Shown here: positions 15,366 through 53,849 of the stretch, piece after piece | How positions within the stretch are numbered: position 1 is the first letter of the stretch | Layout: each line of letters opens with the position of its first letter | NCBI GenBank assembly: GCA_014687725.1 | Contig: GCA_014687725.1_4094.1 | From: a phage | Direction: 5' to 3' (one strand) | DNA: 64,000 nucleotides | Position numbers and translations under genes: made by a program | The notes under the pieces: model-generated | The model's database searches: none | Told to the model about the DNA's origin: nothing | What the model saw: the letters and a program-made list of their open reading frames with translations, nothing else

Positions 15366-15393
15366 TGCGTAAAGGGATCTAGTACTGATTCAG

Positions 15394-15459
15394 AAAAAAG
15401 TCAAGGCGTTTTTAAAATTATGCGTTAAAAAAATGCATAGGTAATCCCTTGACTTTTTT
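15394..15459. repeat. 13-bp perfect inverted repeat flanking a 40-nt AT-rich core
   Basis: AAAAAAGTCAAGG 15394-15406 / CCTTGACTTTTTT 15447-15459; in the 250-bp gene-free region before the array. Confidence 0.5.
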
Positions 15460-15556
15460 GAAATAAAAGGGATTGGACTATGGCAAAATGCGTAGGGGGC
15501 TAAAGGGCGGGTAACCTTAGCGACTTCGATAAAGGGGTATTACGAATAAAATGTTA

Positions 15557-15585
15557 TTGACTTTTTATATGAATCGTATAAAATA
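15557..15585 (+). promoter_or_regulatory. promoter at head of paralog array
   Basis: TTGACT 15557-15562, ~16-nt spacer, TAAAAT -10; then SD AAGGGAG. Confidence 0.5.
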
Positions 15586-15614
15586 TGATTGATATTAATT
15601 TTAAGGGAGTCCCT

Positions 15615-15812
15615 ATGCGTATTTTAACTAAAGAACAGCACCACGAAAGACTTATCAATAACATGGCTATGATAATGTATAAGTCCCATGACCGTGGTAT
15701 TGCCTATAAGCGTGAATTAATTATGGCACTATTCATTGGAACTAACTTTCAGGAAAGGTATGTCAACGATTGGATTTGGTATTTAATTGAAGATATAACG
15801 AGTAAACTATGA
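15615..15812 (+). CDS. family A paralog (LGTNYQ-motif small protein)
   Basis: motif FIGTNFQER; ATG 15615 with SD AAGGGAG (track start 15585). Confidence 0.65.
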   Translation: MRILTKEQHHERLINNMAMIMYKSHDRGIAYKRELIMALFIGTNFQERYVNDWIWYLIEDITSKL

Positions 15813-16009
15813 AAATGCGTATTTTAAATAAAGAAGAATATCAATCACTGTTACGTAAAAACTTCACAAAGATTTATAATACAGACACACACGTAGAACG
15901 AATGGAGTTATACCTTTTGATTACATTGGGAACAAACTATCAGGGTAGATGGGTGTGGCAATATATGGATACATTGAAAAATAAAATATTGTCCACGAGG
16001 AAACAATGA
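15809..16009 (+). CDS. family A paralog
   Basis: motif LGTNYQGR; ATGA stop/start overlap. Confidence 0.65.
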   Translation: MKMRILNKEEYQSLLRKNFTKIYNTDTHVERMELYLLITLGTNYQGRWVWQYMDTLKNKILSTRKQ

Positions 16010-16215
16010 AAACTATAACACGAACCCAATCATACGGTCTTATCTTGAAATACATGGACTTAATGGTGGATATCAGCAAAGACCTGCCTAAAACTGAAAT
16101 TGAAGTTGCAAGAGCAGAGATCCGCATGTTGGCTGTACTGAACACAAACCATCAGGAAGATTATGTTGAAGAATGGATTCGATTTTTAATAGAAGATATT
16201 AAGAGTAAACTATGA
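16006..16215 (+). CDS. family A paralog
   Basis: motif LNTNHQED; ATGA overlap. Confidence 0.65.
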   Translation: MKTITRTQSYGLILKYMDLMVDISKDLPKTEIEVARAEIRMLAVLNTNHQEDYVEEWIRFLIEDIKSKL

Positions 16216-16427
16216 TTATTATAGAAAACTCATATCAATATACTAAACGCATCGCTGCCAGACAACTTGAAATCCTCATAATATACGAAGAGACTTCTGA
16301 TTTAAACTTAGCCGAGGTATTGGAAAATGAAATACTTTTGGGTGCATTCTTGGGAACAGACTATCAGGAGTATTATGAGGAAAAGTATTTGTCATCTCTA
16401 GAGAAATACATCAGGAGCAAATTATGA
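16212..16427 (+). CDS. family A paralog
   Basis: motif LGTDYQEY; ATGA overlap. Confidence 0.65.
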   Translation: MIIIENSYQYTKRIAARQLEILIIYEETSDLNLAEVLENEILLGAFLGTDYQEYYEEKYLSSLEKYIRSKL

Positions 16428-16636
16428 TTATATTAACACCAGAAGAATATAAGAAACGTTTCAATTCTGTCCAGACTGAAATATTACTTATATACCTTTC
16501 AAATGCAGACCTTAACTTATCAAGGGCAATGGAGAAGGATTTACTTATGGGTGCATTTTTGGATACAGACTTTCAGGAGTATTATGTAGGGAAATACTTA
16601 ATTGAACTTCAGAACTACATTAAGAGTAAACTATGA
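16424..16636 (+). CDS. family A paralog
   Basis: motif LDTDFQEY; ATGA overlap. Confidence 0.65.
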   Translation: MIILTPEEYKKRFNSVQTEILLIYLSNADLNLSRAMEKDLLMGAFLDTDFQEYYVGKYLIELQNYIKSKL

Positions 16637-16860
16637 AACATTTAAGTAATATTGAGAAGATGAGAATTATCATTGATGCATTAAACAAATACGATACCCT
16701 TTTACAAATAAAAGGTTTAACTCGATTGGAACACAAGATAAACACCACCGATGTACGCATGTTGGCTGTACTGGGGACGAACTTTCAGGAAGAGTATGTT
16801 GTTGCACACATAGTTGCACTCACTAATTACATAATGGACAAATGTAATGAACATCATTAA
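16633..16860 (+). CDS. family A paralog
   Basis: motif LGTNFQEE; ATGA overlap. Confidence 0.65.
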   Translation: MKHLSNIEKMRIIIDALNKYDTLLQIKGLTRLEHKINTTDVRMLAVLGTNFQEEYVVAHIVALTNYIMDKCNEHH

Positions 16861-17071
16861 TAACTTTGAATACGAGGCCCGTGCTAAGAGTGCCAGAAAA
16901 AAAGAGAACACCATTTACTTCACTATGATGTACTTACAATGGACTGAAATTGAAGAAAAGGTTGCTGAAGTATGGATGTTGGAATTCATGGGGACGCAGT
17001 ATCAGAATAGGTTTGCGGGTGAGTATATCAATGTTCTTATGAAACAAATAGAAAGAAAGGAAAAGAACTAA
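16847..17071 (+). CDS. family A paralog
   Basis: motif MGTQYQNR. Confidence 0.65.
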   Translation: MNIINNFEYEARAKSARKKENTIYFTMMYLQWTEIEEKVAEVWMLEFMGTQYQNRFAGEYINVLMKQIERKEKN

Positions 17072-17229
17072 TGGTTTTCATTAACATATCTGACCAACTC
17101 GATACTAAACTAGAAGTCGAGCAGAGTGAGGGATGGATGCTGTACTTTCTTGGAACTTCTCATCAGAATTTTTATATCCATGAACACATAGTTGCACTCA
17201 AGAATTACATTATGGACAAATGCAAATGA
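17071..17229 (+). CDS. family A paralog, N-terminally shortened copy (52 aa)
   Basis: motif LGTSHQNF; C-terminus HIVALKNYIMDKC repeats that of the 16633-16860 copy; TAATG overlap; below track cut-off. Confidence 0.4.
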   Translation: MVFINISDQLDTKLEVEQSEGWMLYFLGTSHQNFYIHEHIVALKNYIMDKCK

Positions 17230-17483
17230 AATACTTAACACAAGATGAATATTCACTTAGAATTCGAAAGCTCACCCCAGAAGCAAGAGTAATCTACGAT
17301 GACCCCACCCTTACATGGAACCAAATGCGAGCTAAAGTTAATGAGCTATGGTTGCTGTACTTTATGGGGACTCAATATCAAGATAAGTTTTGCAAAGAAT
17401 TTGTCGATCAATTAATGAATGTTATACAGGATAAACTAGATGAATATTGGCTCGCAAAACATGAAGACTTTATCAGGAGTTGA
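17220..17483 (+). CDS. family A paralog
   Basis: motif MGTQYQDK. Confidence 0.65.
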   Translation: MQMKYLTQDEYSLRIRKLTPEARVIYDDPTLTWNQMRAKVNELWLLYFMGTQYQDKFCKEFVDQLMNVIQDKLDEYWLAKHEDFIRS

Positions 17484-17712
17484 GTATCAAACTGCCCTCT
17501 TCTCTCTTATTAACACCCTTAGAAAAAACAATGCATTACATGGTGCACCTGAAGTGGATGTTATCAACGGTGATGTTTATCTTATGAAATTCATTGGAAC
17601 AAACTATCAAGATCTGTTCATTCAACGATACTTGGCAGCATTAAGAAACCAAATCCAATATAAAACCCGTCAAGCCCAAAGAGAATGGAAGAGACAATGC
17701 GACAAAGACTAA
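17461..17712 (+). CDS. family A paralog
   Basis: motif IGTNYQDL; start uncertain (track 17440). Confidence 0.6.
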   Translation: MKTLSGVEYQTALFSLINTLRKNNALHGAPEVDVINGDVYLMKFIGTNYQDLFIQRYLAALRNQIQYKTRQAQREWKRQCDKD

Positions 17713-17945
17713 ATCACAAAATGTATTGTAAACTATTACAAACACTGGCACAGAAACACTATGACACCGTATCTGAAATATTACCCTATGATATCATGCG
17801 TTTAATTCATAGTGAGGCCGAGATGCTTGTACTGATGAGAGGGACTGATAAAACAGCAATAGCCAGATCGATTGAGCAATATATTGATGCACACTGCCAA
17901 CACATGAGAACCGAAATCTGGAGGAAAGAGAATGATAATCCTTAA
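17685..17945 (+). CDS. family A paralog (divergent)
   Basis: motif region MRGTDKTA; tandem position. Confidence 0.55.
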   Translation: MEETMRQRLNHKMYCKLLQTLAQKHYDTVSEILPYDIMRLIHSEAEMLVLMRGTDKTAIARSIEQYIDAHCQHMRTEIWRKENDNP

Positions 17946-18147
17946 TGAGTATCAGTATCATTGGAGGTTACAAACTATCAAATCAAAAGTGTATAGTATT
18001 GTGTTAAACAAATCTATTGCACAAGAGGACAAATGTGTTATAATAGCTGAAATGAAGTTGGGTGTATTCGTAGGGACAAACTATCAAAACATCTACACTG
18101 ACGTATTATTAAGTTCCTTACGTAACAAGGTGGTATCCAAAATATGA
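17932..18147 (+). CDS. family A paralog
   Basis: motif VGTNYQNI. Confidence 0.65.
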   Translation: MIILNEYQYHWRLQTIKSKVYSIVLNKSIAQEDKCVIIAEMKLGVFVGTNYQNIYTDVLLSSLRNKVVSKI

Positions 18148-18362
18148 GAAATTTACAAGGCTTTGAATACATCAGACTCCTGAAAACATGTGGAAGCAGA
18201 AGGAGAATGATATCAAGCGATAAGAGCATCCAAGCTAACCTTAAGCACGCACTAGTAACTGAACTCTATGTAGGTGCACTCTTAGGCACAAACTATCAAC
18301 AAATGTATGTAGATCTATGGATTGACGCTCTACAGAAAGAGGTTAAAAGTAAATGCAAATGA
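18144..18362 (+). CDS. family A paralog
   Basis: motif LGTNYQQM; ATGA overlap. Confidence 0.65.
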   Translation: MRNLQGFEYIRLLKTCGSRRRMISSDKSIQANLKHALVTELYVGALLGTNYQQMYVDLWIDALQKEVKSKCK

Positions 18363-18571
18363 TTAATTTAAGTAAAGACGAATTTTATGTTATACTGGCG
18401 AAAACTTATCCAGCACGTAAGGCCGTTTATGATAGTCACATTATTGAACCCTCAAAGAAGTTGATTTTAGTAAATGAGATAAAGATGCTTTCAGTCTTAG
18501 GAACAAACTATCAAGAGAATGCTGTACTGATGTTAATTGATGCCCTCCAGCGAGAGGTTAAACGTAAATGA
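18353..18571 (+). CDS. family A paralog
   Basis: motif LGTNYQEN. Confidence 0.65.
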   Translation: MQMINLSKDEFYVILAKTYPARKAVYDSHIIEPSKKLILVNEIKMLSVLGTNYQENAVLMLIDALQREVKRK

Positions 18572-18798
18572 AAATGATTCATTTAACTTACCATGAATAT
18601 CAAAAACGTTTAAATGCATCCAGAGATATAAGGATTCAAATATTCAATAACAAAAGATTGAAGCCTGATATCAGAAAAATCAAAATTATAGAAGCAGAGT
18701 TATGCAACTTTCTAGGGACCAACTATCAGGCAGGTAAGGTAAAAAACTATCTTAGAGAACTAATGAATAGTATTGAAAATAAATGTAAGGGTAATTAA
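18568..18798 (+). CDS. family A paralog
   Basis: motif LGTNYQAG; ATGA overlap. Confidence 0.65.
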   Translation: MKMIHLTYHEYQKRLNASRDIRIQIFNNKRLKPDIRKIKIIEAELCNFLGTNYQAGKVKNYLRELMNSIENKCKGN

Positions 18799-18799
18799 C

Positions 18800-19039
18800 A
18801 TGAAAATGATTAAATTATCTCAAGCAAAATATAAAGAACGCCTGGTGAAAATTGCACCTGGACTTAATGAAATCCATCACGGAGAAGTCATTAAACACGG
18901 AAATAAGATGATTATGAAACTTGAGTTAAAGGTGGGTGCATTCATAGGAACAAACTATCAGGAGTATTATGTAGATGAATACATAATCGCACTTAAGAGA
19001 TACATTGGAAGAAAACTATATCTACAAACTAAAGAATAG
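18800..19039 (+). CDS. family A paralog
   Basis: motif IGTNYQEY; ATG 18800 right after upstream TAA (track TTG 18773). Confidence 0.6.
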   Translation: MKMIKLSQAKYKERLVKIAPGLNEIHHGEVIKHGNKMIMKLELKVGAFIGTNYQEYYVDEYIIALKRYIGRKLYLQTKE

Positions 19040-19068
19040 TATTGAAAATAAATGTGAGGTTGATGAAC

Positions 19069-19332
19069 ATGCAAATGATCAATTTAAGTAAAGATGAATA
19101 TACCGAGCGTATGACAAAAATTACGCACAAACGTAATACAATCTATCACAACCCAGAAATTCAACACAGTAAGAAAATGATTATGATGCGTGAGTTAAAG
19201 ATGGGTGTATTCTTAGGAACAAACTATCAAGATACAGAAGTAAATCGCTTAATCGCGGAGTTACTACTGGAAATCAGAGGTAAGCTGTACTTTCATCAAA
19301 TGACCCAACCACTGAGGTGTACTAAGAAATGA
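19069..19332 (+). CDS. family A paralog
   Basis: motif LGTNYQDT; start uncertain (track TTG 19042). Confidence 0.6.
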   Translation: MQMINLSKDEYTERMTKITHKRNTIYHNPEIQHSKKMIMMRELKMGVFLGTNYQDTEVNRLIAELLLEIRGKLYFHQMTQPLRCTKK

Positions 19333-19544
19333 TCAACATCACATTGCAAGAAAGATTCATCCGAATCAACTATGCAATTACCAAATTAGATGCTACTATA
19401 GGATTCCAAAGTCTACCATACAAAACCAGATTGTTATTAGAGTGTGAAGCTAAGTTGGGTGTACTGTTAGGGACGCAACACCAACAACGATATGTGGAAA
19501 TCTGGATTGACCTTTTAACCCAAAATATATATGAGAGAATGTAA
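19329..19544 (+). CDS. family A paralog
   Basis: motif LGTQHQQR; ATGA overlap. Confidence 0.65.
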   Translation: MINITLQERFIRINYAITKLDATIGFQSLPYKTRLLLECEAKLGVLLGTQHQQRYVEIWIDLLTQNIYERM

Positions 19545-19775
19545 ATGCAAAATGAAATGATATACTTAACGAATGAAGAATTTCAAGAGAAGATGTTAAA
19601 AACCAAAAACATTACTCTTAAGTTCGTTCCAAATCAATCAATATCTGAAGTATCTGCAAATGTATTGTTTCAGAAGCTACCATACGTTCTTGGAACTGAT
19701 AAACAAGAATTTATGGTTCAAAATATGATTGAACATCTTATAATGAGTATTAAGGAAAAAGTTAATGCAAAATGA
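19545..19775 (+). CDS. family A paralog (long-N variant)
   Basis: motif LGTDKQEF. Confidence 0.65.
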   Translation: MQNEMIYLTNEEFQEKMLKTKNITLKFVPNQSISEVSANVLFQKLPYVLGTDKQEFMVQNMIEHLIMSIKEKVNAK

Positions 19776-20019
19776 AATGATATACTTAACCTATAATGAA
19801 TACGTCGAGAGATTAGTTCGTGCCAAGAGATATACCAATAAACGTCCAATTGACCTAAACCAAACCCCAGCAGAAAGGAGTGCAGAAGTATTATTCCAAT
19901 CACTACCATATCTTCTGGGAACTGATAGACAAGAGGAATATGTTGCACGTATGATTAGATATCTTAAAATCACTATTAAGGAAAAAGTAAATGCAAATGA
20001 AATACTTAACAGACGATGA
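19765..20019 (+). CDS. family A paralog (long-N variant)
   Basis: motif LGTDRQEE; first 33 nt identical to the 19545 copy. Confidence 0.65.
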   Translation: MQNEMIYLTYNEYVERLVRAKRYTNKRPIDLNQTPAERSAEVLFQSLPYLLGTDRQEEYVARMIRYLKITIKEKVNANEILNRR

Positions 20020-20242
20020 GTTAAAAGAACGACTAATTAAATCAAGAAAACATACAAATCAACTTCCAAACGACACAAACAAGTCTCCAGCGGAAAGGAG
20101 TGCAGAAGTTTTATACATTCAACTCATGTACTTTCTTGGCACTGACAGACAAGAGTATTACATTGAAAGTATGCTTCGATATCTTAAATTCTCTATAAAG
20201 GAAAAGATACATGATCAAGTATTTAAAAATCCTAACAGTTAA
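19991..20242 (+). CDS. family A paralog (long-N variant)
   Basis: motif LGTDRQEY. Confidence 0.65.
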   Translation: MQMKYLTDDELKERLIKSRKHTNQLPNDTNKSPAERSAEVLYIQLMYFLGTDRQEYYIESMLRYLKFSIKEKIHDQVFKNPNS

Positions 20243-20453
20243 TGAATATCATAAGATTGTAATGAAAACTAATAGTGCTTACGCTAAAAAATCAAACCCA
20301 AAGTACATACTGGAACACACATTTGAAGAACGTCAATTAGCTTTAGTTGAAGCAAAACTTCTTGCACTATTAGGAACAAACTATCAGGAAGAATACAATA
20401 GAAAACTAATATACCTTTTAACTAAACATATAAGAAAAAGAAAAAATGCATGA
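20211..20453 (+). CDS. family A paralog
   Basis: motif LGTNYQEE. Confidence 0.65.
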   Translation: MIKYLKILTVNEYHKIVMKTNSAYAKKSNPKYILEHTFEERQLALVEAKLLALLGTNYQEEYNRKLIYLLTKHIRKRKNA

Positions 20454-20680
20454 AACACTTGACAGATGATGAACATGGGCTTATAGTAATGGATGTAATC
20501 AACATCGAATACAAAAAGTTGATACGCTATCGTTGTTATGAAGATAAGCAACTCGTTCTAGCAGAACAGAAGTTGTTTCGACTCTTAAACACAAACTACC
20601 AAGCACAATACGAAGAATCGTATATGTACCTTTTGGCGAGGAAAGCAAAAAGAGATTATGAAAATTTTAAGCAAAGGTGA
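20450..20680 (+). CDS. family A paralog
   Basis: motif LNTNYQAQ; ATGA overlap. Confidence 0.65.
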   Translation: MKHLTDDEHGLIVMDVINIEYKKLIRYRCYEDKQLVLAEQKLFRLLNTNYQAQYEESYMYLLARKAKRDYENFKQR

Positions 20681-20879
20681 TTCAGTAATATTACTTATAG
20701 AGAGTTCAAGTAAATTCTTAAACATAACACTGTCTGATATAGATGAAGATGACAAAGAAGTACTGAGAGCAGATTTAAGAGTACTGTTACATATCGGAAC
20801 AAACCTACAAGAAGAATATGTAGAGTGCTACATCAATGAACTTAAAGAATCAGTACTGAGAAAATGCAAATGCAAATGA
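20658..20879 (+). CDS. family A paralog
   Basis: motif IGTNLQEE. Confidence 0.65.
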   Translation: MKILSKGDSVILLIESSSKFLNITLSDIDEDDKEVLRADLRVLLHIGTNLQEEYVECYINELKESVLRKCKCK

Positions 20880-21097
20880 AAATCATTACCGATGTAGAAT
20901 ACCTAACAATCATAAATGGACTGTTTTTGAAGCTCTTCGTCATTAACACATCAGATATACCAGATATGGATAAAATTATTAAGAGAAATGAAGTCTATGT
21001 TCTAGCTACCCTTGGAACGAACTATCAAGAACACGACATTAAAGATTATATTAATACACTTAAACGAGCTATTGAACTAAAATGCCAAAACCACTAG
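20864..21097 (+). CDS. family A paralog
   Basis: motif LGTNYQEH. Confidence 0.65.
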   Translation: MQMQMKIITDVEYLTIINGLFLKLFVINTSDIPDMDKIIKRNEVYVLATLGTNYQEHDIKDYINTLKRAIELKCQNH

Positions 21098-21297
21098 GAA
21101 CAGCAGAATACATTGAACTCATGGGATTACACTTCTCATCCTTTCAGAAACTTATGCGAGAATCAAAGAATGATTTAGAATATACCATCAGAGGTTCCGA
21201 TTTAAGAATGCTTCTCACCCTAGACACAGATTCCCAAGAGCGATTTGTCAATGAGCATATTAGAGCACTTTTAATGGAAATTAAAAGTAAACTATGA
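21082..21297 (+). CDS. family A paralog
   Basis: motif LDTDSQER. Confidence 0.65.
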   Translation: MPKPLGTAEYIELMGLHFSSFQKLMRESKNDLEYTIRGSDLRMLLTLDTDSQERFVNEHIRALLMEIKSKL

Positions 21298-21509
21298 AGA
21301 TAATATCAAACCAAGAGTACTTGGCACTATTCAGGAAGAATAATCACAAATATATGGCACTTGATTCAAGAACTGATATAAGTGAACTTGAAAAAAATCT
21401 TTTGCGTTCAGATATGATAGTACTGACACTCTTAGGAACACAGCATCAAGAGAGAACTGTTAATTCATACATAGGTATTCTTATACAGATAGTACAGGAA
21501 AAGATATGA
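21294..21509 (+). CDS. family A paralog
   Basis: motif LGTQHQER; ATGA overlap. Confidence 0.65.
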   Translation: MKIISNQEYLALFRKNNHKYMALDSRTDISELEKNLLRSDMIVLTLLGTQHQERTVNSYIGILIQIVQEKI

Positions 21510-21727
21510 GAATCATAACACAACAAGATATTCTTAAGTTCACAAGGGTTCATGCATCTGAATTTGATGCTATATTATCAAAAAGTTACAATGACCCTTA
21601 TACACAAGATGTACATTACAGTGAATTATGGATGTATATACTTTTAGGTACAAATAAGCAAGAGCAAGCCGTACAGAAGTATTTGACAGCTTTACGTGAT
21701 GCTACTGCTAATGGAGTATGTGTTTAA
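21506..21727 (+). CDS. family A paralog
   Basis: motif LGTNKQEQ; ATGA overlap. Confidence 0.65.
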   Translation: MRIITQQDILKFTRVHASEFDAILSKSYNDPYTQDVHYSELWMYILLGTNKQEQAVQKYLTALRDATANGVCV

Positions 21728-21728
21728 T

Positions 21729-21971
21729 ATGAAAGTACTGACAGAACTAGAAATGTATCATAGATTTAATAAGTACTATCATTTACTTAAGCCTATACAG
21801 AGGATTAAATGTCCATTTGAAGAGAAACAGGTTTTAATCTATGAGCACAAGTTCTTTGTATCATTAGGTACAGATCAACAAGAGTACTATTTGACGTTGT
21901 ACTTGATTACATTAATAGATTTAATTCACTATAAAACCAAACAAGCTAATAAAGAGAAATATGAAAACTAA
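21729..21971 (+). CDS. family A paralog
   Basis: motif LGTDQQEY; ATG 21729 just after upstream TAA (track 21696). Confidence 0.6.
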   Translation: MKVLTELEMYHRFNKYYHLLKPIQRIKCPFEEKQVLIYEHKFFVSLGTDQQEYYLTLYLITLIDLIHYKTKQANKEKYEN

Positions 21972-22305
21972 TATACAACTCAAGGTATATAAATCATTTG
22001 AACATACATATATCAAAAGTAGTCTATGTAGAGATGTAATGGATTACAAGGGTAAGCCATTCACAATTACCTATGATTCTTATGTTAGTGATTTATATAT
22101 ATCATTTGTTAATTACGAAAATAAAATATACAAGCACGTTGATATTAAAGATTTAAGTACTTTATCACCAGAGGAATACTTTCAGGAATCATTAGTATGG
22201 GATTTAGAGTTTCCTATGCCATTAGTACATAAGATGATAGTACTAATGAAAGAATCTAAACAGGAGCCTAATGGTGATTATGAAGAACACACAGTTGAGT
22301 ATTAA
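21961..22305 (+). CDS. family B paralog (EEYFQ-motif protein)
   Basis: motif LSPEEYFQESLVWD. Confidence 0.65.
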   Translation: MKTNIQLKVYKSFEHTYIKSSLCRDVMDYKGKPFTITYDSYVSDLYISFVNYENKIYKHVDIKDLSTLSPEEYFQESLVWDLEFPMPLVHKMIVLMKESKQEPNGDYEEHTVEY

Positions 22306-22675
22306 AAGTACTGATAATACTAAGAGTTATACAAGCTCAAGTACTGTGACAATCGAAGTGAATTCTATTAATGCTGGTAATGCAGTAGATAAGTTCTTTA
22401 TTGCTCAAGGGTACAGGAAAGATATTCATCAATATTGTTCAGTATATGGGGAGTACAATTCTACTGAAGATATAATTTATTGGTCAACACATCAAGATTA
22501 TATAACTAAAATTGGCGTTCCAGATGTTAGTACTTTATCTGAAGAAGAATACTTTCAGTACAGCTTAGTACATGATGTACCTATACCTTTAGGGTTAATC
22601 AAGGGTATGCAGGAAGAGGTTCATAAGCTTAAATCCATGAGTTCAGGTACTTTCATTAGAACAGTGCAATACTAG
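22271..22675 (+). CDS. family B paralog
   Basis: motif LSEEEYFQYSLVHD; start uncertain (alt ATG 22280). Confidence 0.6.
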   Translation: MVIMKNTQLSIKSTDNTKSYTSSSTVTIEVNSINAGNAVDKFFIAQGYRKDIHQYCSVYGEYNSTEDIIYWSTHQDYITKIGVPDVSTLSEEEYFQYSLVHDVPIPLGLIKGMQEEVHKLKSMSSGTFIRTVQY

Positions 22676-22676
22676 C

Positions 22677-22705: not shown

Positions 22706-22734
22706 ACACTAACGTTAATCATAGGGTAAAAATT

Positions 22735-46263: not shown

Positions 46264-46292
46264 TATGATACATTGTTCTCAAGGAGAATTTT

Positions 46293-46844: not shown

Positions 46845-47443
46845 GAAAAAGTTATCAAGAAGCTATTGACTTAATTCGTGAAGTTATCAAGGTGGCTCCT
46901 GCTGCTATTGAGTTCAAGAAGTCCATATACAAGAAGTATGGGTCAATGTCGAGTATGTGCTTTCAAAAGAAACGTAGAGCATTCACTACCCAGTACTGGA
47001 ATGATTCTATCATCCTGAGCAATGAGACTCAGCGTATTTTAACACTAGAATCTGAACCTAATGAGTACGGGGAAGGGAACATTTGTGTACCTGATTATGA
47101 TGAAATTAACTTCAACTGCGGTGATTTTGAAACAACATTATTACTTCATGAGGGTTATCCAGAAGGTGATGTATTAGCTGAGTACAATCCAAAAACTAAA
47201 ATTCTCAAAAGAGGAATCCAGTTCACTATTAATAACAAAGATGATGTTCAAGCAGCACTGATGCAACTGAGTACAAGTGAACCTATCACTATTAGTGTAG
47301 AAGAGTTATGGGGAATTATTTCAGTACTCAATGAGTGCTACAAAGTAAAATCATTGCGTAAACACAGCATTATATTACATACCAATATGGCAAATATAAA
47401 ATGTAAGCACATTCAAGAAATGGTGGTTCCAGATGGACTTTAA
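46841..47443 (+). CDS. hypothetical protein (200 aa), weakly family B-like
   Basis: segment AALMQLSTSEP; ATGA overlap. Confidence 0.55.
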   Translation: MRKSYQEAIDLIREVIKVAPAAIEFKKSIYKKYGSMSSMCFQKKRRAFTTQYWNDSIILSNETQRILTLESEPNEYGEGNICVPDYDEINFNCGDFETTLLLHEGYPEGDVLAEYNPKTKILKRGIQFTINNKDDVQAALMQLSTSEPITISVEELWGIISVLNECYKVKSLRKHSIILHTNMANIKCKHIQEMVVPDGL

Positions 47444-48017
47444 AGAAATTGAAAGTAAATTAAAGTACTTCAAAGATATCAAACTTCTTTGGAAAAAGTA
47501 TAAAGTTGATTACAATTTCAGTGATGATGAGACAATAAAATACATTGAGATTAATATCAAAATCAAGTTCAAGAATAATAATTATGGTGAAGTAACCTTA
47601 AATCATACTGGTATATCACTCAAGGACTATGATGGTACAACACTCGCATATTTTGACTTCACACCAGAACCAGGTGAAACACTACTTAGTGAGATAAATT
47701 CCTATGACATGGAAGTGTTCGGCGGGAATCCGTTACTGTTCCGACTTTCTGAAGAGTGGAGTGAAGAGTACTACACTTACAAAGATGGTGTAGTACTTGA
47801 TATTCATGGAGAAGTTGTGAATGACTTGGAAGAACGTTTGTTCCAAGAATTGTGTGTTTCAAATACTTCATATGCATACAATCATATCCTTGACATGTTT
47901 GATTTATATAGTAAAATAGATGCTGAAATGAAGGCACATGGTATTCATTACCTTACAATTAACGACTATGCTCAACTCGAAACCGCTGTGAAAGCATTGA
48001 CTAAAGTACTGAAATAG
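47433..48017 (+). CDS. family B paralog (divergent)
   Basis: motif LEERLFQELCVSN. Confidence 0.55.
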   Translation: MDFKEIESKLKYFKDIKLLWKKYKVDYNFSDDETIKYIEINIKIKFKNNNYGEVTLNHTGISLKDYDGTTLAYFDFTPEPGETLLSEINSYDMEVFGGNPLLFRLSEEWSEEYYTYKDGVVLDIHGEVVNDLEERLFQELCVSNTSYAYNHILDMFDLYSKIDAEMKAHGIHYLTINDYAQLETAVKALTKVLK

Positions 48018-48026
48018 GAATGAAAT

Positions 48027-48440
48027 ATGAAACTGTATCATGCGAGTACTGTAAAAATTGATAACTTTTATATCCCGTATGGTGGTCTTCATATGGGAGG
48101 TAAACACAGTGCTTTGGAAGCTGCATTACGCAAGCTGAGAAGCCCACTGAACGTAGTAGACGCATGTACAGTATACTTGCATACCTTAGAAGTTGATGTT
48201 GATAACGTGCTTCTGTGTGAAGATTTAGGCAGTGATGATGAGTGGCGTTCACTTATTGAGAATTGCACTGCTCAAGGTTATGATGCTGTTCAGTACAAAA
48301 ATGATTACGAGCCAGACAATGTTCCTAGCTTTATGATTTGGGATGCATCTAAAGTTCGCATCATTGAAGTTGATGCTATGCATATGGATGAAGCTGAAAT
48401 GATTATCGAAGATTTTCTTGATGAATATGAAGGTGTATAA
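48027..48440 (+). CDS. hypothetical protein (137 aa)
   Basis: Track ORF; distinct from families A/B. Confidence 0.6.
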   Translation: MKLYHASTVKIDNFYIPYGGLHMGGKHSALEAALRKLRSPLNVVDACTVYLHTLEVDVDNVLLCEDLGSDDEWRSLIENCTAQGYDAVQYKNDYEPDNVPSFMIWDASKVRIIEVDAMHMDEAEMIIEDFLDEYEGV

Positions 48441-48976
48441 TGTCTGAACCGATGGTAGCACTGGCACGTACAAAATTACTATTAAAGATTGGTGAGATTT
48501 TTACGGTTCTTCTGTCCAATAATATTGATATCACTGAGCTAGATATTAAGCAACCGTGGGAAGTGACTATGTTCTCGGCGTTCCACCGATTGTCATATAA
48601 AGGTGAAAGTGTTCTTGATTTTAACCCTAAAGCAAAATTCATAGATTATGCTGCGTTGTACAGAGAGTTGCACAGAAATATTTATTCCGGTTGTATAACC
48701 AATAACTTCAAAGAAATTAAAGTTCAAACTGCATCACATGAGTTCAATGATTTACTTTATCCAGAATTTAATCTAACGGAAGAATTACTCTTTCAGTACT
48801 CGTTAATTCTCACAAATCTCGAAACGCTAGAGTACTACAAAGAGTTAGTAGATATTTTTATGAATACACGACTTTCAAAAGATATTGTGATATTCTGGTA
48901 TACAGAGCATGTTACGGAGGAATTGCTTACTGAATTTCTTCTAAATATGACAGCTATAAAGGAGAAGTTATGTTAG
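48440..48976 (+). CDS. family B paralog
   Basis: motif LTEELLFQYSLIL; TAATG overlap. Confidence 0.65.
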   Translation: MSEPMVALARTKLLLKIGEIFTVLLSNNIDITELDIKQPWEVTMFSAFHRLSYKGESVLDFNPKAKFIDYAALYRELHRNIYSGCITNNFKEIKVQTASHEFNDLLYPEFNLTEELLFQYSLILTNLETLEYYKELVDIFMNTRLSKDIVIFWYTEHVTEELLTEFLLNMTAIKEKLC

Positions 48977-49443
48977 ATATTTTAGGAAACATCGATACTG
49001 CAAATTATTTTATCCAGGACGCACTGTTCAATACAGTTCAACAAGGATTAGAAGTTCGTCATAACGTTTACCAAGGTGATGGTTATTTCGTTGATATTGT
49101 TGAGGCACGAAAGAATACGTTTAATGTTAACATTACAACACTGGGTAGACAGAACATTGCACGAATTTTAGTAAGTAAAGATGAAATTGTATTGAGATAC
49201 AGTGCTAAGTTTATGTTGACTTATAAGAAAAAAACTGATATGTTCAGTACTAATTTATTTGATGAACCATTTGACCTTGATGATATTGAAGCTACTTTCT
49301 TTACTCAAAGTACTATGGTAAAATACACTGATGTTCAATTTTCTGCTGATGTAATGTCAGAAACATTACAAATGATCAAGGTATTATTTTATGCATTTGA
49401 GCAATTTAGAGAAGAAAGAAACAAGGTTAACAACCACAGATGA
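48970..49443 (+). CDS. hypothetical protein (157 aa), weakly family B-like
   Basis: segment IEATFFTQSTMV. Confidence 0.55.
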   Translation: MLDILGNIDTANYFIQDALFNTVQQGLEVRHNVYQGDGYFVDIVEARKNTFNVNITTLGRQNIARILVSKDEIVLRYSAKFMLTYKKKTDMFSTNLFDEPFDLDDIEATFFTQSTMVKYTDVQFSADVMSETLQMIKVLFYAFEQFREERNKVNNHR

Positions 49444-49804
49444 ACTAATAGAGGCGATCACTAAGGAGTCAAAATACCACAAAGGGATTCGTCTATATTT
49501 TATAGATATTGGTTCAATGGAAGGCATATACATTTATGGTTCACAATCTTTATCTTATGATGTAATGCCAAAAAAACATGTAAAAATCTTTTTAGGTTCA
49601 AATAAAAAAACTTTCTTGACAATTAATGATAAAAACGTTATTATGAATTCGTTGGGTCATGATAAGGTGGAAATTGATCTAAACACACTGGAGGATATTG
49701 ATTTTTTTCAATACGAGTGTTTAGGTGTTGACTTACATGGCATTAGTAGCGATATGATAAAATCATTAATCAAATATTTCGAAGGTGTTCATAAATGTAT
49801 CTAA
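49391..49804 (+). CDS. family B paralog (divergent)
   Basis: motif LEDIDFFQYECLG; 53-nt overlap with upstream gene, start uncertain. Confidence 0.5.
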   Translation: MHLSNLEKKETRLTTTDELIEAITKESKYHKGIRLYFIDIGSMEGIYIYGSQSLSYDVMPKKHVKIFLGSNKKTFLTINDKNVIMNSLGHDKVEIDLNTLEDIDFFQYECLGVDLHGISSDMIKSLIKYFEGVHKCI

Positions 49805-50292
49805 CTAAATCAATGAAAAATTCATTTGATAAAATCAAGAGTTGTCTTGATGGGGAAAATATTACAAGTGTTACACAAACTGCTGACCAAATTCAAAGCA
49901 GTTCAAGTGATTGTACTGTTATTTTAGGTTTACATAGTCTACGTTTATCAATAGTAAATAATATTGACAACACTGCTATTGTAATCACACCATGCCATAT
50001 TCAAAATGAGAATGGTGTATATCTTCATCACATGGGAACAGTATTTCATATTTTCAATACAAACGAAAACATTGTTAAGGAATACAAATCTCTTAATATT
50101 GATTCAGGTGAATTATTTCAAATGAGTACTTTGTACTCATGTAATTTTACAGATACTTCATGTATTTTGCCATTTTTCTTGGAAATTATTAAGAAAATGG
50201 AAAATTTAAAACGTGAATACAATAAAGAAATGGTTCCTGAAGCTATATTAAATATTACTAATGCTATAGAGAAGTATAATGCAGTGACTTAA
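49795..50292 (+). CDS. family B paralog
   Basis: motif DSGELFQMSTLYS. Confidence 0.65.
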   Translation: MYLTKSMKNSFDKIKSCLDGENITSVTQTADQIQSSSSDCTVILGLHSLRLSIVNNIDNTAIVITPCHIQNENGVYLHHMGTVFHIFNTNENIVKEYKSLNIDSGELFQMSTLYSCNFTDTSCILPFFLEIIKKMENLKREYNKEMVPEAILNITNAIEKYNAVT

Positions 50293-50810: not shown

Positions 50811-50942
50811 ATGGCTAAGAAAGTAAACAATTTCGTACAGAAACACATGAATGAGTTTAACAAGCCTCAGACACATGTGGATCGTAAAAAAGAAATGAAA
50901 AATGGTAAAGTAAAACACAAGTCGAGATTTATTCTCGACTAA
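50811..50942 (+). CDS. basic small protein (43 aa)
   Basis: ATG with SD GGAG 7 nt upstream; MAKKVNNFVQKHMNEFNKPQTHVDRKKEMKNGKVKHKSRFILD; below track cut-off. Confidence 0.45.
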   Translation: MAKKVNNFVQKHMNEFNKPQTHVDRKKEMKNGKVKHKSRFILD

Positions 50943-50971
50943 TTTTTTGTCTAAATTTATGAGGATTGTAT

Positions 50972-51820
50972 ATGTTAGATATTTCAGATTTTCTTAATTT
51001 TAAAAAGTATTCAGTACTTGAACATATCAACGAATTTCTGAATTCTACTACACCATTTGGTATCAGTACATCAGATGCATACGATGGATATACAATCTTC
51101 CCATACAATGACTTTCAAATTTCCGTCAAAAAAGGTTTTACAAAAGAAGTTGCAATTCGTGATGTAGTAATGTATAGCGATTCTTCTATTTCTTACTGTC
51201 ATGACGTGAACAAGTTTGAATCTCTTTCAACACCTAATTGTTCATACTACAAATCCCATGACACGATGATGTATAAAGAACAACATATCAATGGTGTTTC
51301 GTTCTATAAAACTAGCAGTGATAAATCATATACATCTAGAGATGATTTTGGAAAATACACATGTACTATGCACACGGATAATGAAAAAACAAATTACACT
51401 CATTCATTCGAGTCCAAATTCCAAGAGAGTGAAGTTTCAAATATCACTATACAAGAACAGGTTTCAGAAGGCATTGTATATCGTAGTACTGCATTCTTTC
51501 GCATGAAAGATATTGCCACAGGCAGACCAATGATGTACAATATTGACATATACATGAAAGGTGATATATCCGAAGTAGTGATTAGTACTGGTTATCGTGA
51601 AAAATATACAGTTACAATGGAATCACCAGATGCATCATTAGTTCACCTCTTTAACAATTTATATACATTCCAATTCGAACTTAGTTTCGATCCAAATGAA
51701 TATCAAATATTTGATATATTAAAAAGTAATATTATTAATAAGTTAGAATATTACTACAAGTTAGGTGGTAAGATGTGCATAGTTAATACTATGTTACATA
51801 ACATAAAAGAAACATTATAA
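50972..51820 (+). CDS. hypothetical protein (282 aa)
   Basis: ATG 50972 with SD GAGGA (track TTG 50966). Confidence 0.7.
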   Translation: MLDISDFLNFKKYSVLEHINEFLNSTTPFGISTSDAYDGYTIFPYNDFQISVKKGFTKEVAIRDVVMYSDSSISYCHDVNKFESLSTPNCSYYKSHDTMMYKEQHINGVSFYKTSSDKSYTSRDDFGKYTCTMHTDNEKTNYTHSFESKFQESEVSNITIQEQVSEGIVYRSTAFFRMKDIATGRPMMYNIDIYMKGDISEVVISTGYREKYTVTMESPDASLVHLFNNLYTFQFELSFDPNEYQIFDILKSNIINKLEYYYKLGGKMCIVNTMLHNIKETL

Positions 51821-51836
51821 ATCTGGAGGATTTGGT

Positions 51837-52130
51837 ATGGATACTAAATTCAAAATTATTTTTAAAACTAAGCCGTATATTCCACATACAGCAGAACGTT
51901 TTATACCACATGGTGCTGAGGAAATTATTCACCAAGATGGTACTAAGTTATACCTTGTTCCTTGTTCTTATGAACGTGCAGTAGAAATGTTACTAATGAA
52001 TGCTAGACTATGCAAAAACAAGTACATTAGTTACCTATACAATGAACATATTTTAGATTTCAATGATGAAAATATGTTCATTCTAGCAATTGAGGATTTT
52101 GATAACTGGTACAATATTATTAAAATCTAA
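51837..52130 (+). CDS. hypothetical protein (97 aa)
   Basis: ATG with SD GGAGGA. Confidence 0.65.
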   Translation: MDTKFKIIFKTKPYIPHTAERFIPHGAEEIIHQDGTKLYLVPCSYERAVEMLLMNARLCKNKYISYLYNEHILDFNDENMFILAIEDFDNWYNIIKI

Positions 52131-52140
52131 TGAAAATAAT

Positions 52141-52175
52141 GTGAACATATTAGATTCTTGTGATATAATGTTCAC
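52141..52175 (+). promoter_or_regulatory. extended -10 promoter bracketed by 8-bp inverted repeat (operator-like)
   Basis: GTGAACAT 52141-52148 / ATGTTCAC 52168-52175 flank TG-n-TATAAT 52161-52169. Confidence 0.45.
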
Positions 52176-52201
52176 ATCTTTTTTTGATAACGGAGATATA
52201 G

Positions 52202-52588
52202 ATGAATACAAGTTCAGTCCTAAAAGCAATTGGTGGTGTTTTACTCATTGAAGTAAAAGGTGAGCCAAAGCTATGCTGTTTAGAAGATATGAAGAATACA
52301 AAACACTTCAGTACTGGTCAGATTTTCAATGCCATTCGTATTCTAAATGACAAATCCATTGCTGATTATGGAAAAGTTTGGCCTGTATATCAAAATGCTG
52401 ATGGTGATATCAGTACTGATTGGAAAACAATTGAGGCGGTACGACAAAGTTGTGAGAGTGATTGGGACTTCATTGTTGAAGTTTGTGATCAACTACAAGA
52501 AGATGTTCCAGAAATTGTTGAACGAAAAGAAGTTCTAGCACGACTTGAAAAATTCCGTCACGGAACACTACAGTATGACACAATCTAA
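52202..52588 (+). CDS. hypothetical protein (128 aa)
   Basis: ATG with SD GGAGA. Confidence 0.65.
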   Translation: MNTSSVLKAIGGVLLIEVKGEPKLCCLEDMKNTKHFSTGQIFNAIRILNDKSIADYGKVWPVYQNADGDISTDWKTIEAVRQSCESDWDFIVEVCDQLQEDVPEIVERKEVLARLEKFRHGTLQYDTI

Positions 52589-52637
52589 TCTGCTTATTAA
52601 AAATATCTAATTAACATTATATAAAAGGAATTTAAAA

Positions 52638-52943
52638 ATGGAAGACAATGGAATGAAATTTGATATGTTTGAAGGTGTACCAGAGTTCGATTTCAACAAA
52701 CTTGAAGAAGGTGAGGAATCAGAACTAGTTAGTGTTACACTTAAAGCAGATTCTAAAAAGAAATATTCATCATCAGTACGTTCACGTTCACAAGAAGAAT
52801 ACGAAACATTTATTGAAAGTATTCATTATGAAACATTCCATCACGCAGATGGAACTCCATATGAAGTACGTGTAACAGTACTGAAGCCTGAAGTAAATCC
52901 AATGGAAAATCTACGTCCTGTTTACTGCTGGGCAAGTCACTAA
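52638..52943 (+). CDS. hypothetical acidic protein (101 aa)
   Basis: ATG with SD AAAGGAA. Confidence 0.65.
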   Translation: MEDNGMKFDMFEGVPEFDFNKLEEGEESELVSVTLKADSKKKYSSSVRSRSQEEYETFIESIHYETFHHADGTPYEVRVTVLKPEVNPMENLRPVYCWASH

Positions 52944-52951
52944 TAAACCAA

Positions 52952-52983
52952 AGGACGGGATTTGTTATCTCGTCCTTTTTTTG
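52952..52983 (+). terminator. rho-independent terminator
   Basis: ~10-bp stem AGGACGGGAT/ATCTCGTCCT + T7. Confidence 0.75.
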
Positions 52984-52994
52984 TCTGGAGATGT

Positions 52995-53849
52995 ATGAAA
53001 CTTTATCTAATCGTTGACTACAATAAGGATTATGCTGGTAACTTCACCGAAGATTCGGATGGATATTGCACATCGACTAATGTCAATGTACGTAGCAGTA
53101 GTGCTCATGAACATGAATCTTGTAAAAATCTAAAAGATTTTATCGCATACCGAGCATTTGAAAAGAACTTCTGCCGCAGTAGATATTCGAAGTTTGAGTA
53201 CCCGTTAATTGATGTTCCTGATGATTTAATGTTCCAGTTAATGCTGACTGGAGTTCAAGATTATGATTACATAGCGTATAATCATATTACTAAGAAAATT
53301 TATATTGGTACATCATCACATGACACTTCTATGTATGCATCATGCCCAGATGATCGAATGAATGATAGAAAATCATACTATAGTGGGTCAGTTGGTTTAA
53401 ATGATTCATTAAATAAAAATTCATTCTTTGAGTATGTTTATGATTACCATCATGAGAAAAAAGAACGTGAAGATTACTGTATAGCAATTGATAGTACTAA
53501 TGGTTATGAAGACGTGAAAGAAGCACTTATGCCGTACATTATTGAAAAGTACTACAAAGATTTTCAGTACTGTAGTAATTTTCTAATCAGAAATTCTATT
53601 ATAATCGGTCGCCAATCTAGTGCATACTCTCAGTACTATAATGATTCACCAGTAGCATCGGCAAATGAAATGTGTGATATTTTACAAATTCCACGTGAAG
53701 ATATGGCATTCATTTTTACATCTTTTATTGAAGATGATGAGTTGTATATTAAAAATAAACACCGTTTCATGCCAAGCAAGATTGAGGTTATTCGAAGTTT
53801 TAGTGTTGATATACTAACAAATTTCACAGAAAAAACCGAATATAACTGA
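52995..53849 (+). CDS. hypothetical protein (284 aa), weakly family B-like
   Basis: ATG 52995 with SD GGAG (track 52962 overlaps terminator); segment DDLMFQLMLTG. Confidence 0.65.
   Translation: MKLYLIVDYNKDYAGNFTEDSDGYCTSTNVNVRSSSAHEHESCKNLKDFIAYRAFEKNFCRSRYSKFEYPLIDVPDDLMFQLMLTGVQDYDYIAYNHITKKIYIGTSSHDTSMYASCPDDRMNDRKSYYSGSVGLNDSLNKNSFFEYVYDYHHEKKEREDYCIAIDSTNGYEDVKEALMPYIIEKYYKDFQYCSNFLIRNSIIIGRQSSAYSQYYNDSPVASANEMCDILQIPREDMAFIFTSFIEDDELYIKNKHRFMPSKIEVIRSFSVDILTNFTEKTEYN

Follow-up and report, generated by a model that had tools for sequence, protein, structure and literature searches.

What do about 100 small, co-oriented genes just inside the terminal repeat of a jumbo phage encode, and how are they expressed? 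We addressed this question for positions 15366-53849 of a 64,000-nt stretch of phage DNA (the window, by which we mean the whole stretch analysed). The window comes from an Asteriusvirus jumbo coliphage of the PBECO4/121Q/G17 type (98.6% identity to vB_EcoM_G17; genome ~350 kb; host E. coli). Position 1 of the G17 record aligns at window 15517, and the 'Direct Terminal Repeats' annotation of the vB_Ec-M-J record ends at the same sequence, so the boundary of the terminal repeat is backed by two independent records. Terminal redundancies of ~20 kb and 20,668 bp have been published for G17 (PMC6563267) and Sharanji (PMC11895373), respectively. The array starts 40 nt into the unique region, adjoining a direct terminal repeat of ~20.7 kb, with its first promoter at 15557 and its first gene at 15615. 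We give a probability of roughly 55% to the reading that it comprises early polycistronic operons, transcribed by the host RNA polymerase, that would encode diversified host-targeting proteins. The gene layout is as follows.

1..15517, + strand, inner 15.5 kb of the terminal repeat: 44 small genes with ~84-nt spacers, most with a consensus sigma-70 promoter upstream
15585..21971, + strand, family A main block: 28 tandem copies of ~65-90 aa with LGTNYQE; ORF 17685-17945 belongs to neither family
21961..23297, + strand, family B island 1: three copies (21961, 22271, 22971), with ORF 22735-22980 outside both families and promoter P2 in between
23272..23726, + strand, family A island 1: two copies amid family B genes, the position being occupied in five genomes
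24433..50292, + strand, family B main block: 33 copies with HMM support, acidic and 100-220 aa long, FQ being invariant in the motif sEExyFQxS(T/L)
31173..31337, + strand, 54-aa truncated copy of the N-terminal part of B gene 31705-32061, with an 85-nt stretch 96% identical
36321..36711, + strand, family A island 2: two copies deep within the B block
50966..53849, + strand, tail of the interval: 5-6 genes of neither family, with a promoter at 52142-52169, a terminator at 52950-52978 and another at ~53878-53907

On the + strand, 97 ORFs were counted in 15585-50808 and 103 in 15366-53849 (coding fractions 0.989 and 0.978), and the public annotation of G17 carries the same ~104 overlapping CDS, all named 'hypothetical protein'. 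With refined starts, overlaps make up 71% of the array junctions (n = 97); the gap has a median of -4 nt and is ≤15 nt at 84% of junctions; 4-nt ATGA junctions account for 24% and 1-nt junctions for 9%. The earlier note's description of ~100 co-oriented, mostly overlapping phage genes in a handful of predicted transcription units therefore agrees with both ORF and junction counts. A Shine-Dalgarno motif of at least 4 nt of their own is found for 68 of the 103 genes, so that independent initiation is also possible. Since the non-array genes downstream are similarly dense (median gap 2 nt), the tight packing is ordinary phage operon design and nothing special to the array. The real contrast is with the terminal repeat upstream, which has a promoter per gene and a median gap of 84 nt (region 1-15400).

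BLASTP clustering and iterated HMM searches recovered the two paralog families and the interdigitated islands that had been proposed. Family A has 32 copies of ~70 aa sharing the LGTNYQE motif; its AF2 model is a three-helix bundle (pLDDT 97), in which an invariant G-T-x-x-Q-E core sits at the predicted turn between helices 2 and 3 and the rest is hypervariable. Family B has 36 HMM-supported copies, or up to 44 when motif-bearing ORFs are counted, and is predicted to form an alpha/beta domain, acidic in composition, in which FQ is invariant and the remaining scaffold is hypervariable. In its main block, eight more ORFs carry the motif at the matching relative position and ~20 are assigned to neither family. 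At least 68 array genes, and probably 76 in all, belong to families A and B, both of them lineage-specific.

All 32 A and 36 B members found by the iterated HMM lie head-to-tail on the + strand within 15585-50292. The best paralog of an A gene is its neighbour in 14 of 32 cases (6% expected; Spearman rho with distance -0.27, p 1e-7), while for B the best paralog is adjacent in 9 of 36 and an overall distance correlation is absent. Copy number differs between isolates, with 26, 29, 30, 32 and 32 A copies in five genomes. The comparison of isolates for presence/absence polymorphism that the earlier note had suggested found such polymorphism, concentrated in family A and in the first half of the array, which is covered 52-100% in related genomes, against 97-100% of the second half in most. 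The genome of EC22.5-2 lacks 329 nt (window 16852-17180), roughly the length of one gene unit, and the flanking alignments overlap within a 58-nt paralogous repeat (D15) whose copies are 378 nt apart; in 121Q and TH47 an adjacent A gene pair stands in swapped order. Evidently, tandem duplication gave rise to the families and unequal crossing-over reshaped them. The distal half is well conserved among isolates, which a core function would explain no less well than an arms race would.

The possibility that the array is an assembly artefact of collapsed or expanded repeats, for which only the repetitive gene layout speaks, is close to negligible. Median amino-acid identity between paralogs is ~30%, DNA repeats reach at most 218-226 nt (74-77% identity), and a single 85-nt stretch (96%) is the one exception to the limits of 226 nt and 77%. 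The same layout and order recur in more than 30 independently assembled genomes, whose differences are whole-gene and biologically sensible.

[quoted passage not shown] It most likely corresponds to family A. That sentence gives no coordinates, families, structure or function, and it calls the copies 'very similar', in contrast to the median identity found here; in the literature searched, we found nothing on family B, the motifs, the position beside the terminal repeat or the conservation across genera. Hua et al. 2017 (PMC5646251) read the 121Q array as selectively neutral filler, tandem duplication having enlarged the genome to fit a bigger capsid (a capsid/genome ratchet). Copy-number variation among viable isolates fits this, as does the lack of a detectable function or domain in the array proteins, but selection makes it unlikely. 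The dN/dS falls from 0.38-0.44 in A and 0.29-0.32 in B to 0.22 in the remaining array genes and 0.11-0.17 in flanking genes. All these values are below 1, so a gene-wide signal of positive selection is absent, which speaks against the host-targeting reading. Ortholog identity ranges from 39% to 100% inside one genome pair. Given dN/dS of 0.2-0.44 across the array classes, its genes are evidently real and under purifying selection, with families conserved across genera infecting Escherichia and Klebsiella. More than 30 genomes keep the reading frames intact, families and motifs persist in the two genera while the remaining protein sequence has diverged to ~15-30% identity, and most promoter hexamers are conserved between genomes, all of which argues for function and against filler.

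The relation between the two families was then considered. Profile comparison of A with B detected no relationship. The proposal that the two families recombine within the locus was not borne out: five genomes share one order, A-block, BBB, AA, B..., AA, B..., from which we take the islands to be ancestral, and recombination is documented within family A. A Klebsiella RaK2-like phage has 13 A and 30 B copies, more interleaved than here and with both motifs kept, and because both families co-occur there the A-B linkage is old and conserved. That linkage lends the suggested joint function some backing; 1:1 pairing was not seen. A two-component system in which each A works with at least one B (for example, adaptor and effector, or inhibitor and target) would explain the shared locus, the interleaving in both Asteriusvirus and the Klebsiella phage, and the A islands that persist within B blocks in five genomes. 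It is nevertheless doubtful, since copy numbers are unmatched (32 to 36-44 here, 13 to 30 in the Klebsiella phage), most A genes stand in an A-only block, well away from all B genes, and EC22.5-2 has extra B-like genes at 305-337 kb with no A hit there, besides the missing sequence relationship.

Returning to expression of the array as early operons, the predicted signals are as follows.

15557..15584, + strand, P1, promoter-like TTGACT-16-TAAAAT (10/12 consensus positions), heading predicted unit TU1 (15615-22675, ~31-34 genes)
22677..22705, + strand, P2, promoter-like TTGACA-17-TATAGT with TG (11/12), in a 59-nt gap; identical in TH47
26621..26687, + strand, terminator hairpin 26621-26642 (-12.8 kcal/mol), then P3 at 26659-26687
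39088..39117, + strand, P4, promoter-like, perfect TTGACA-18-TATAAT with TG (12/12), in a 59-nt gap
42930..42992, + strand, terminator 42930-42950, then P5 at 42964-42992 (11/12 with TG)
46238..46256, + strand, terminator hairpin with a TTGACT hexamer partly within its loop and descending stem
50920..50940, + strand, terminator hairpin ending the paralog array (-12 kcal/mol, z -4.5), absent from the earlier list

All six promoter-like sites listed previously are present, with 10-12 of 12 consensus positions, each in one of the few intergenic gaps; the one at 52142 has 10/12 with TG. The four terminators listed with them (here at 26621, 42930, 46238 and 52950) are hairpins with energies from -10 to -16.6 kcal/mol, and a U tract follows every one; two were added, at 50920 and ~53878. 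The hairpin at 46238-46256 may double as a terminator and a weak promoter, as in the terminal repeat. The first G17 CDS starts at window 15615, after P1, and the CDS following P3 (11/12 with TG) at 26716; P3 heads the longest predicted unit, TU3, which runs to 39091 (12.4 kb, ~30 genes). In genomes down to ~84% identity, the hexamers of 22677 and 39088 are unchanged (at P4 the spacer varies) and those of 42964 and 52142 nearly so, 42964 having a -10 substitution in at least one genome; in 121Q and TH47 the -10 hexamers of 15557 and 26659 have substitutions. The array is organised in ~7-9 predicted units of 1-12 kb, each with a sigma-70-type promoter at its head and several ending in an intrinsic terminator, at ~7 promoters per ~100 genes.

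Good sigma-70-like promoters and hairpin terminators lie almost only in the few intergenic gaps; weak internal promoters may exist. Promoter-like sites as a whole match the shuffle expectation in the array (107 vs 110.8; 121 vs 121.0); those occurring within genes at chance frequency could work, which would raise the number of transcription units. The terminal-repeat part has ten perfect 12/12 promoters and is enriched in promoter-like sites (85 vs 51.0 expected by shuffling, sd 7.2).

The T4/CBB-type late motif is nearly absent (TATAAATA 0 vs 14.8 expected; ATAAATA 3 vs 47.9, sd 6.7), and a single + strand copy falls in the array, at 30593. Across the EC22.5-2 genome the motif has few copies, mostly outside the first ~110 kb, the part that holds the array region. 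The CBB paper (PMC5259590) proposes for such stretches of short ORFs, rich in sigma-70 promoters, a role as early genes in host takeover; a search of the literature found no Asteriusvirus transcriptome. Assignment to the early class would follow from promoter type, late-motif avoidance and position. The array is best read as an accessory arm of putatively early genes, transcribed away from the adjoining genome end.

Paralogous families are typical of inner-body proteins, as in phiKZ, and the products could on that ground be packaged inner-body or ejected proteins. The phiKZ-like bubblegram of 121Q, suggesting an inner body, points the same way (PMC5646251). Virion mass spectrometry of phAPEC6 (Table 1 of PMC7247149), by contrast, lists nothing between gp347 and gp549, an interval that includes the family B members gp426c and gp442c. 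The phAPEC6 virion instead contains another paralog set, the 'DNA condensation proteins' gp003-010, gp549 and gp551 (PMC7247149). Together with sigma-70 promoters and the lack of late-promoter motifs in the array, this makes packaging highly improbable. The A and B products are best read as soluble, non-virion proteins: non-virion because the phAPEC6 proteome lacks gp348-gp548, and soluble because TM-like segments occur in no A protein and in just 2 of the 36 from B, the latter family being acidic.

Database searches gave no match for either family in Pfam, NCBIfam or PDB. In PHROGs, family A matches phrog_4148 and family B members match phrog_9317, 12674, 19795 and others, all of 'unknown function'. 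No sequence, domain or fold resemblance was found between array proteins and known anti-defence or host-takeover proteins (Ocr, Ard, Acr and similar), which counts against the host-targeting reading.

In the preferred reading of early host-targeting operons, host RNA polymerase would transcribe the array early in infection, and stop/start overlaps would couple translation, leaving almost no untranslated RNA and also shielding the multi-kilobase transcripts from Rho. The A and B products would form a diversified set that binds or inhibits host proteins in the service of host takeover or counter-defence, and the paralog repertoire would broaden the range of host strains that can be exploited. 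Judged from sequence, the two families would then represent a large block of probable host-targeting genes.

Several known systems invite comparison. The SPO1 host-takeover module and the T5 pre-early genes are small early genes inside a terminal repeat. These modules and that of CBB (PMC5259590) resemble the array in having small genes, early or presumed early, at or beside a long terminal repeat, host-type promoters and a presumed action on the host; they lie inside the repeat with ~1 promoter per 1-2 genes, which fits window 1-15517. We rejected the array itself as a module of this type, as it starts beyond 15517, has far fewer promoters per gene and consists of paralog families. Anti-defence islands in the leading regions of conjugative plasmids (bioRxiv 10.1101/2023.02.15.528439) are likewise one-direction clusters of small genes where DNA may enter first, but the array has no known anti-defence family. 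Bacillus phage G has a lineage-specific expansion of ~35 zinc-ribbon proteins (Iyer et al. 2021, PMC7824862), also a big expansion of one small protein family in a single jumbo phage genome; these proteins differ in family and fold and have a recognisable domain suggesting a DNA-binding or transcription-factor role, whereas A and B have none.

The array also resembles in form the multigene families of large eukaryotic DNA viruses. Tandem paralogs near the termini, copy-number variation among isolates, unequal recombination and small non-structural proteins are common to both, as in MGF110, MGF360 and MGF505 of African swine fever virus. Poxvirus families behave as 'genomic accordions' (Elde et al. 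2012, as cited in PMC13359090), and for the array no evidence of such rapid, selection-driven amplification was found. The African swine fever virus and poxvirus families have no homology to A or B, and the role in host range or immune evasion that is demonstrated there is only presumed here. By its sequence, the array is a tandem viral multigene family, with head-to-tail paralogs, closest paralogs often as neighbours (above all in family A), a varying copy number and, for one indel, breakpoints in paralogous sequence.

The array (window 15366-53849, with its paralogs in a core at 15585-50808) is built of long operons, gap-free and all on one strand, with host-type promoters at their heads that are mostly well conserved between genomes. 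It carries two families that are under selection and evolve in tandem, each keeping an invariant core while the rest of the protein is hypervariable; we put the probability of this reading of its architecture and evolution at about 0.9. By megablast, the whole window comes from an Asteriusvirus jumbo coliphage. Positions 15366-35000 are 98.6% identical to Escherichia phage vB_EcoM_G17 (G17) over 100% of their length, and SHEFM2K, 121Q, PBECO4, Sharanji and phAPEC6 are also close. In the G17 record, the array corresponds to an unbroken series of 104 CDS (G17_00510 to G17_00613), all annotated 'hypothetical protein' and with identical overlaps.

In alignment, window 15517 corresponds to position 1 of the G17 record. 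The independent vB_Ec-M-J record lists 'Direct Terminal Repeats 1-21525', whose end sequence GGGCGGGTAACCT falls at the same point, and terminal redundancies of ~20 kb (from read coverage) and a repeat of 20,668 bp have been reported for G17 (PMC6563267) and Sharanji (PMC11895373), respectively. Window 1-15517 is therefore the inner part of the terminal repeat. The inner boundary of this ~20.7 kb direct terminal repeat, at 15517/15518 (GGGCGGGTAACCT followed by T), lies within the gap 15366-15584. The first array promoter (15557-15584) starts 40 nt past it, and all array genes are transcribed away from the adjoining genome end.

The terminal-repeat part (1-15517) is a distinct module of 44 small genes, all on the + strand, with spacers of ~84 nt between them. 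Ten of its promoters are perfect (TTGACA-16/17-TATAAT) and many more match at 11/12 positions, which makes roughly one per gene; promoter-like sites are enriched here (85 vs 51.0 expected, sd 7.2). This promoter-per-gene module (1-15365) is like the terminal-repeat host-takeover modules of SPO1 and T5. It also holds two-member paralog pairs (2893-3237 / 9401-9769 and 10573-10848 / 10849-11148) and a repeated 28-nt hairpin, AAAGGGATTGACTCCGGTCAGTCCCTTT, with GCTATTAT after it, at 4806-4833, 8499-8526, 11776-11803 and 14033-14060; a similar element lies at 46238-46256 in the array. The hairpin looks like a terminator stem with a -35 TTGACT hexamer inside it and an extended -10 behind it, so a single element may serve for both transcription termination and restart.

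All plausible ORFs of the array interval are on the + strand. The earlier note had described ~100 abutting or overlapping genes, and we count 103 ORFs in the full interval, 97 of them in 15585-50808 with a coverage of 98.9%. After starts had been refined by Shine-Dalgarno score, 71% of junctions were overlapping, 24% were of the ATGA type and 84% were ≤15 nt apart; the median gap was -4 nt, compared with 84 nt in window 1-15400, and only eight gaps in the interval were ≥40 nt. Such packing is not unique to the array: outside it, the genes downstream are spaced by a median of 2 nt. The operon architecture is ordinary for phages.

The six promoter-like sites proposed in the earlier note were all recovered, all in gaps and with 10-12 of 12 consensus positions, and five have an extended -10 TG. 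The hexamers of the sites at 22677 and 39088 are unchanged in 121Q, EC22.5-2, G17 and TH47 (~84% identical) despite spacer mutations, and the other sites have -10 substitutions in some of the compared genomes. The four proposed terminators fold with -10 to -16.6 kcal/mol, each followed by a U tract, and two more were found at 50920 and about 53878. That promoters are few holds for strong intergenic sites and is limited to these, since promoter-like match totals in the array equal the shuffle expectation (107 vs 110.8; 121 vs 121.0); weaker internal matches occur at chance frequency, and some may act as weak promoters. About nine transcription units are predicted; the two longest span 7.1 kb with about 31 genes and 12.4 kb with about 30.

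At 52125-52205, an inverted repeat (GTGAACAT...ATGTTCAC) brackets the promoter at 52142; it looks like an operator and is mostly kept in TH47, with one left-arm substitution. The largest non-coding gap of the window (53850-54175, 326 nt) contains a strong terminator hairpin at about 53878-53907 and has no Rfam or tRNA match; no tRNAs or known RNA families were found in the window.

Late-promoter motifs were scanned on both strands. The T4-type late promoter TATAAATA does not occur in the window (0 vs 14.8 expected, sd 3.8), the late core ATAAATA of the CBB/GAP32 type occurs three times (47.9 expected, sd 6.7) and TAAATA 23 times (Markov expectation 81.5).

Occurrences of the late core ATAAATA in the window (only three, both strands scanned)
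30593, + strand, ATAAATA
31681, - strand, ATAAATA
48679, - strand, ATAAATA

The late-promoter core is strongly avoided across the whole window and on both strands. The late motif is scarce throughout the EC22.5-2 genome as well, where the few copies present are clustered between 160 and 350 kb, a stretch that does not include the array region. The 'middle' promoter of the CBB type (TGAAACG...TA) gave 2 matches in the window vs 1.7 expected, none within the array. The scarcity of late motifs and the presence of sigma-70 promoters both point to an array that is probably transcribed by the host polymerase and not late. For Asteriusvirus and RaK2-like phages, our literature search found neither a transcriptome nor functional data; a phage transposon-sequencing preprint covers phiKZ only.

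The array products are non-virion and soluble. A role as virion proteins was considered and rejected because the phAPEC6 virion proteome contains no protein between gp347 and gp549 (PMC7247149), the range in which the family B members gp426c and gp442c of that phage fall. TM-like segments were predicted in 0/32 family A, 2/36 family B and 2/29 other array genes.

BLASTP clustering and iterated HMM searches assigned 32 members to family A and 36 to family B. Family A proteins are 52-96 aa long, with the consensus LGTNxQExYVxxYIxxLxxxIxxK and invariant Q54 and L65, and AlphaFold2 on the paralog alignment predicted a three-helix bundle (pLDDT 97). Their conserved columns form the hydrophobic core and a polar cluster (T7, E10, E42, G50, T51, N52, Q54, E55 and K72), and the remaining positions are near-maximally variable. 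A 154-aa protein from an ENA metagenome contig of 3149 bp (P0041) scored 117 bits against the family A profile and appears to be two family A domains fused in one reading frame.

Family B proteins are 100-220 aa long and acidic (median net charge -9), with F113 and Q114 invariant within sEExyFQxS(T/L)(V/I); the model (pLDDT 90) combines a beta-sheet with one helix at the N-terminus and several at the C-terminus. Since eight further unassigned ORFs carry the hallmark at an equal relative position (e.g., DAFMFQLSLVHD and EEQHFQLSTLH), the family probably has at least 44 members. The motif EEyYFQxS recalls a TEV/3C-type protease site. Its likeness to ENLYFQ/S is superficial, as P1' is not Gly/Ser, and its location in a helix predicted with high confidence (pLDDT about 97 at residues 109-115) also disfavours cleavage; we treat it as a likely structural or functional core. 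The two families are unrelated, a single superfamily being rejected at a profile-profile probability of 0.3%. A compositional step separates their blocks (window 16000-22000 vs 22000-50000), with an AT skew of 0.16-0.21 for A vs 0.01-0.08 for B and a GC skew of 0.02-0.09 for A and 0.07-0.24 for B. A third small tandem paralog family, unrelated to A or B, comprises five adjacent genes of about 90-103 aa at 57359-58768.

The paralogs are old, with a median pairwise identity of about 30% and a maximum of 56%, and the DNA repeats in the array are short and diverged. This divergence, the short repeats and the identical layout in >30 assemblies rule out an assembly artefact. Tandem origin remains visible in family A, where the neighbouring gene is the best paralog for 14 of 32 genes (6% expected). 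Comparison of related isolates, which the earlier note had suggested, shows differences by presence and absence of genes: family A has 32 copies in the window, 32 in G17, 30 in EC22.5-2, 29 in TH47 and 26 in 121Q, and family B has 35-38 in these five genomes. Coverage among isolates is 52-100%, in many alignment pieces, for the proximal half (family A and the first B genes) vs 97-100% in most genomes for the distal half. Window 16852-17180 is missing from EC22.5-2. The alignments on either side of the missing stretch overlap within a paralogous repeat of 58 nt that has two copies 378 nt apart, the signature of unequal crossing-over. Two adjacent family A genes are swapped in order in 121Q and TH47, and the gene at 31173-31337 is a truncated duplicate. 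All five genomes share one order of families (A-block, BBB, AA, B..., AA, B...), which makes the family islands ancestral.

Pooled dN/dS against TH47 fell from 0.44 in A through 0.29 in B, 0.22 in the other array genes and 0.17 in the terminal-repeat genes to 0.11 in the downstream genes, and against 121Q it was 0.38 for A and 0.32 for B; the array genes are thus real and under purifying selection, with A evolving fastest. Gene-wide positive selection was not seen, dN/dS being <1 in every gene class. Between two given genomes, orthologs can be anywhere from 39% to 100% identical, a spread that indicates mosaic allele exchange.

When 1.84 billion representative proteins were searched exhaustively by profile, family B was represented by 141 clusters, nearly all of 65-210 aa, one spurious 2,635-aa entry apart. 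Named members belong to Asteriusvirus genomes and the Klebsiella phages RaK2, K64-1 and Muenster, and a BFVD structural search added family B likeness in the GAP32, Serratia BF and Yersinia fHe-Yen9 phages. Two partial proteins labelled Actinomadura adrarensis at NCBI (P0031 and P0331, contigs of 513-563 bp) fall inside coliphage family B clusters and are probably phage contamination of that assembly. A word-indexed search had suggested that family A is limited to Asteriusvirus, a view overturned when both HMMs were run on the Klebsiella RaK2-like genome OU509535, which has 13 A and 30 B genes on one strand. There, 13/13 A and 27/30 B genes lie within about 31 kb, with three more B genes further upstream; interleaving is far greater than in the window, and the motifs are kept in 9/13 A and 28/30 B genes. 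In the complete EC22.5-2 genome (OR845138.1), the 30 family A copies are at the array locus only. Family B has 47 matches in that genome, of which eight weaker ones lie at 305-337 kb (L015) and two at 139-152 kb. The 305-337 kb stretch, which has no family A match and is remote from the main array, is a second region in which sigma-70-like promoters on the + strand abound.

A 2026 review (PMC13282480) repeats the statement of Hua et al. (PMC5646251) on the array in 121Q, and about 10% of RaK2 gene products were reported to be paralogues (PMC3622015). Family B, the motifs, the predicted folds, the terminal-repeat adjacency, the cross-genus co-occurrence and any function are undescribed in searchable papers.

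For function, we tentatively favour, at somewhat below even odds, a diversified set of binders or inhibitors acting on host factors, for takeover or counter-defence. The array genes would be expressed early in infection, and their stop/start overlaps would couple translation and so protect the transcripts from Rho. We class the array as a case of tandem multigene families in giant viral genomes, set on ordinary phage polycistronic operons. By analogy, A and B together could be to this phage what the terminal multigene families are to African swine fever virus and poxviruses, a strain-range library, although we consider this more specific proposal unlikely. Such a library, adjoining the terminal repeat, would number >75 genes, roughly 12% of the phage's genes. 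Each member would keep one invariant docking or structural core (G-T-x-x-Q-E in A, EE-x-x-FQ-x-S in B), and the surface that it presents, with the host factor or defence protein that this surface meets, would differ from member to member. Copy number, shifting by unequal crossing-over, would set the phage's strain range, and the two folds would be new effector scaffolds.

Jumbo phages consist mostly of genes of unknown function, which raises the question why they carry such numbers of them. In this phage, two selected, cross-genus families at one contiguous, probably early-expressed locus make up about 12% of the genes, and natural copy-number variation suggests that the family A block could be deleted block by block. 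The locus also bears on therapy, for which Asteriusvirus phages have been put forward as candidates. The array offers a practical entry point for asking whether batteries of diversified host-targeting genes drive gigantism in phages, as they do in large eukaryotic DNA viruses.
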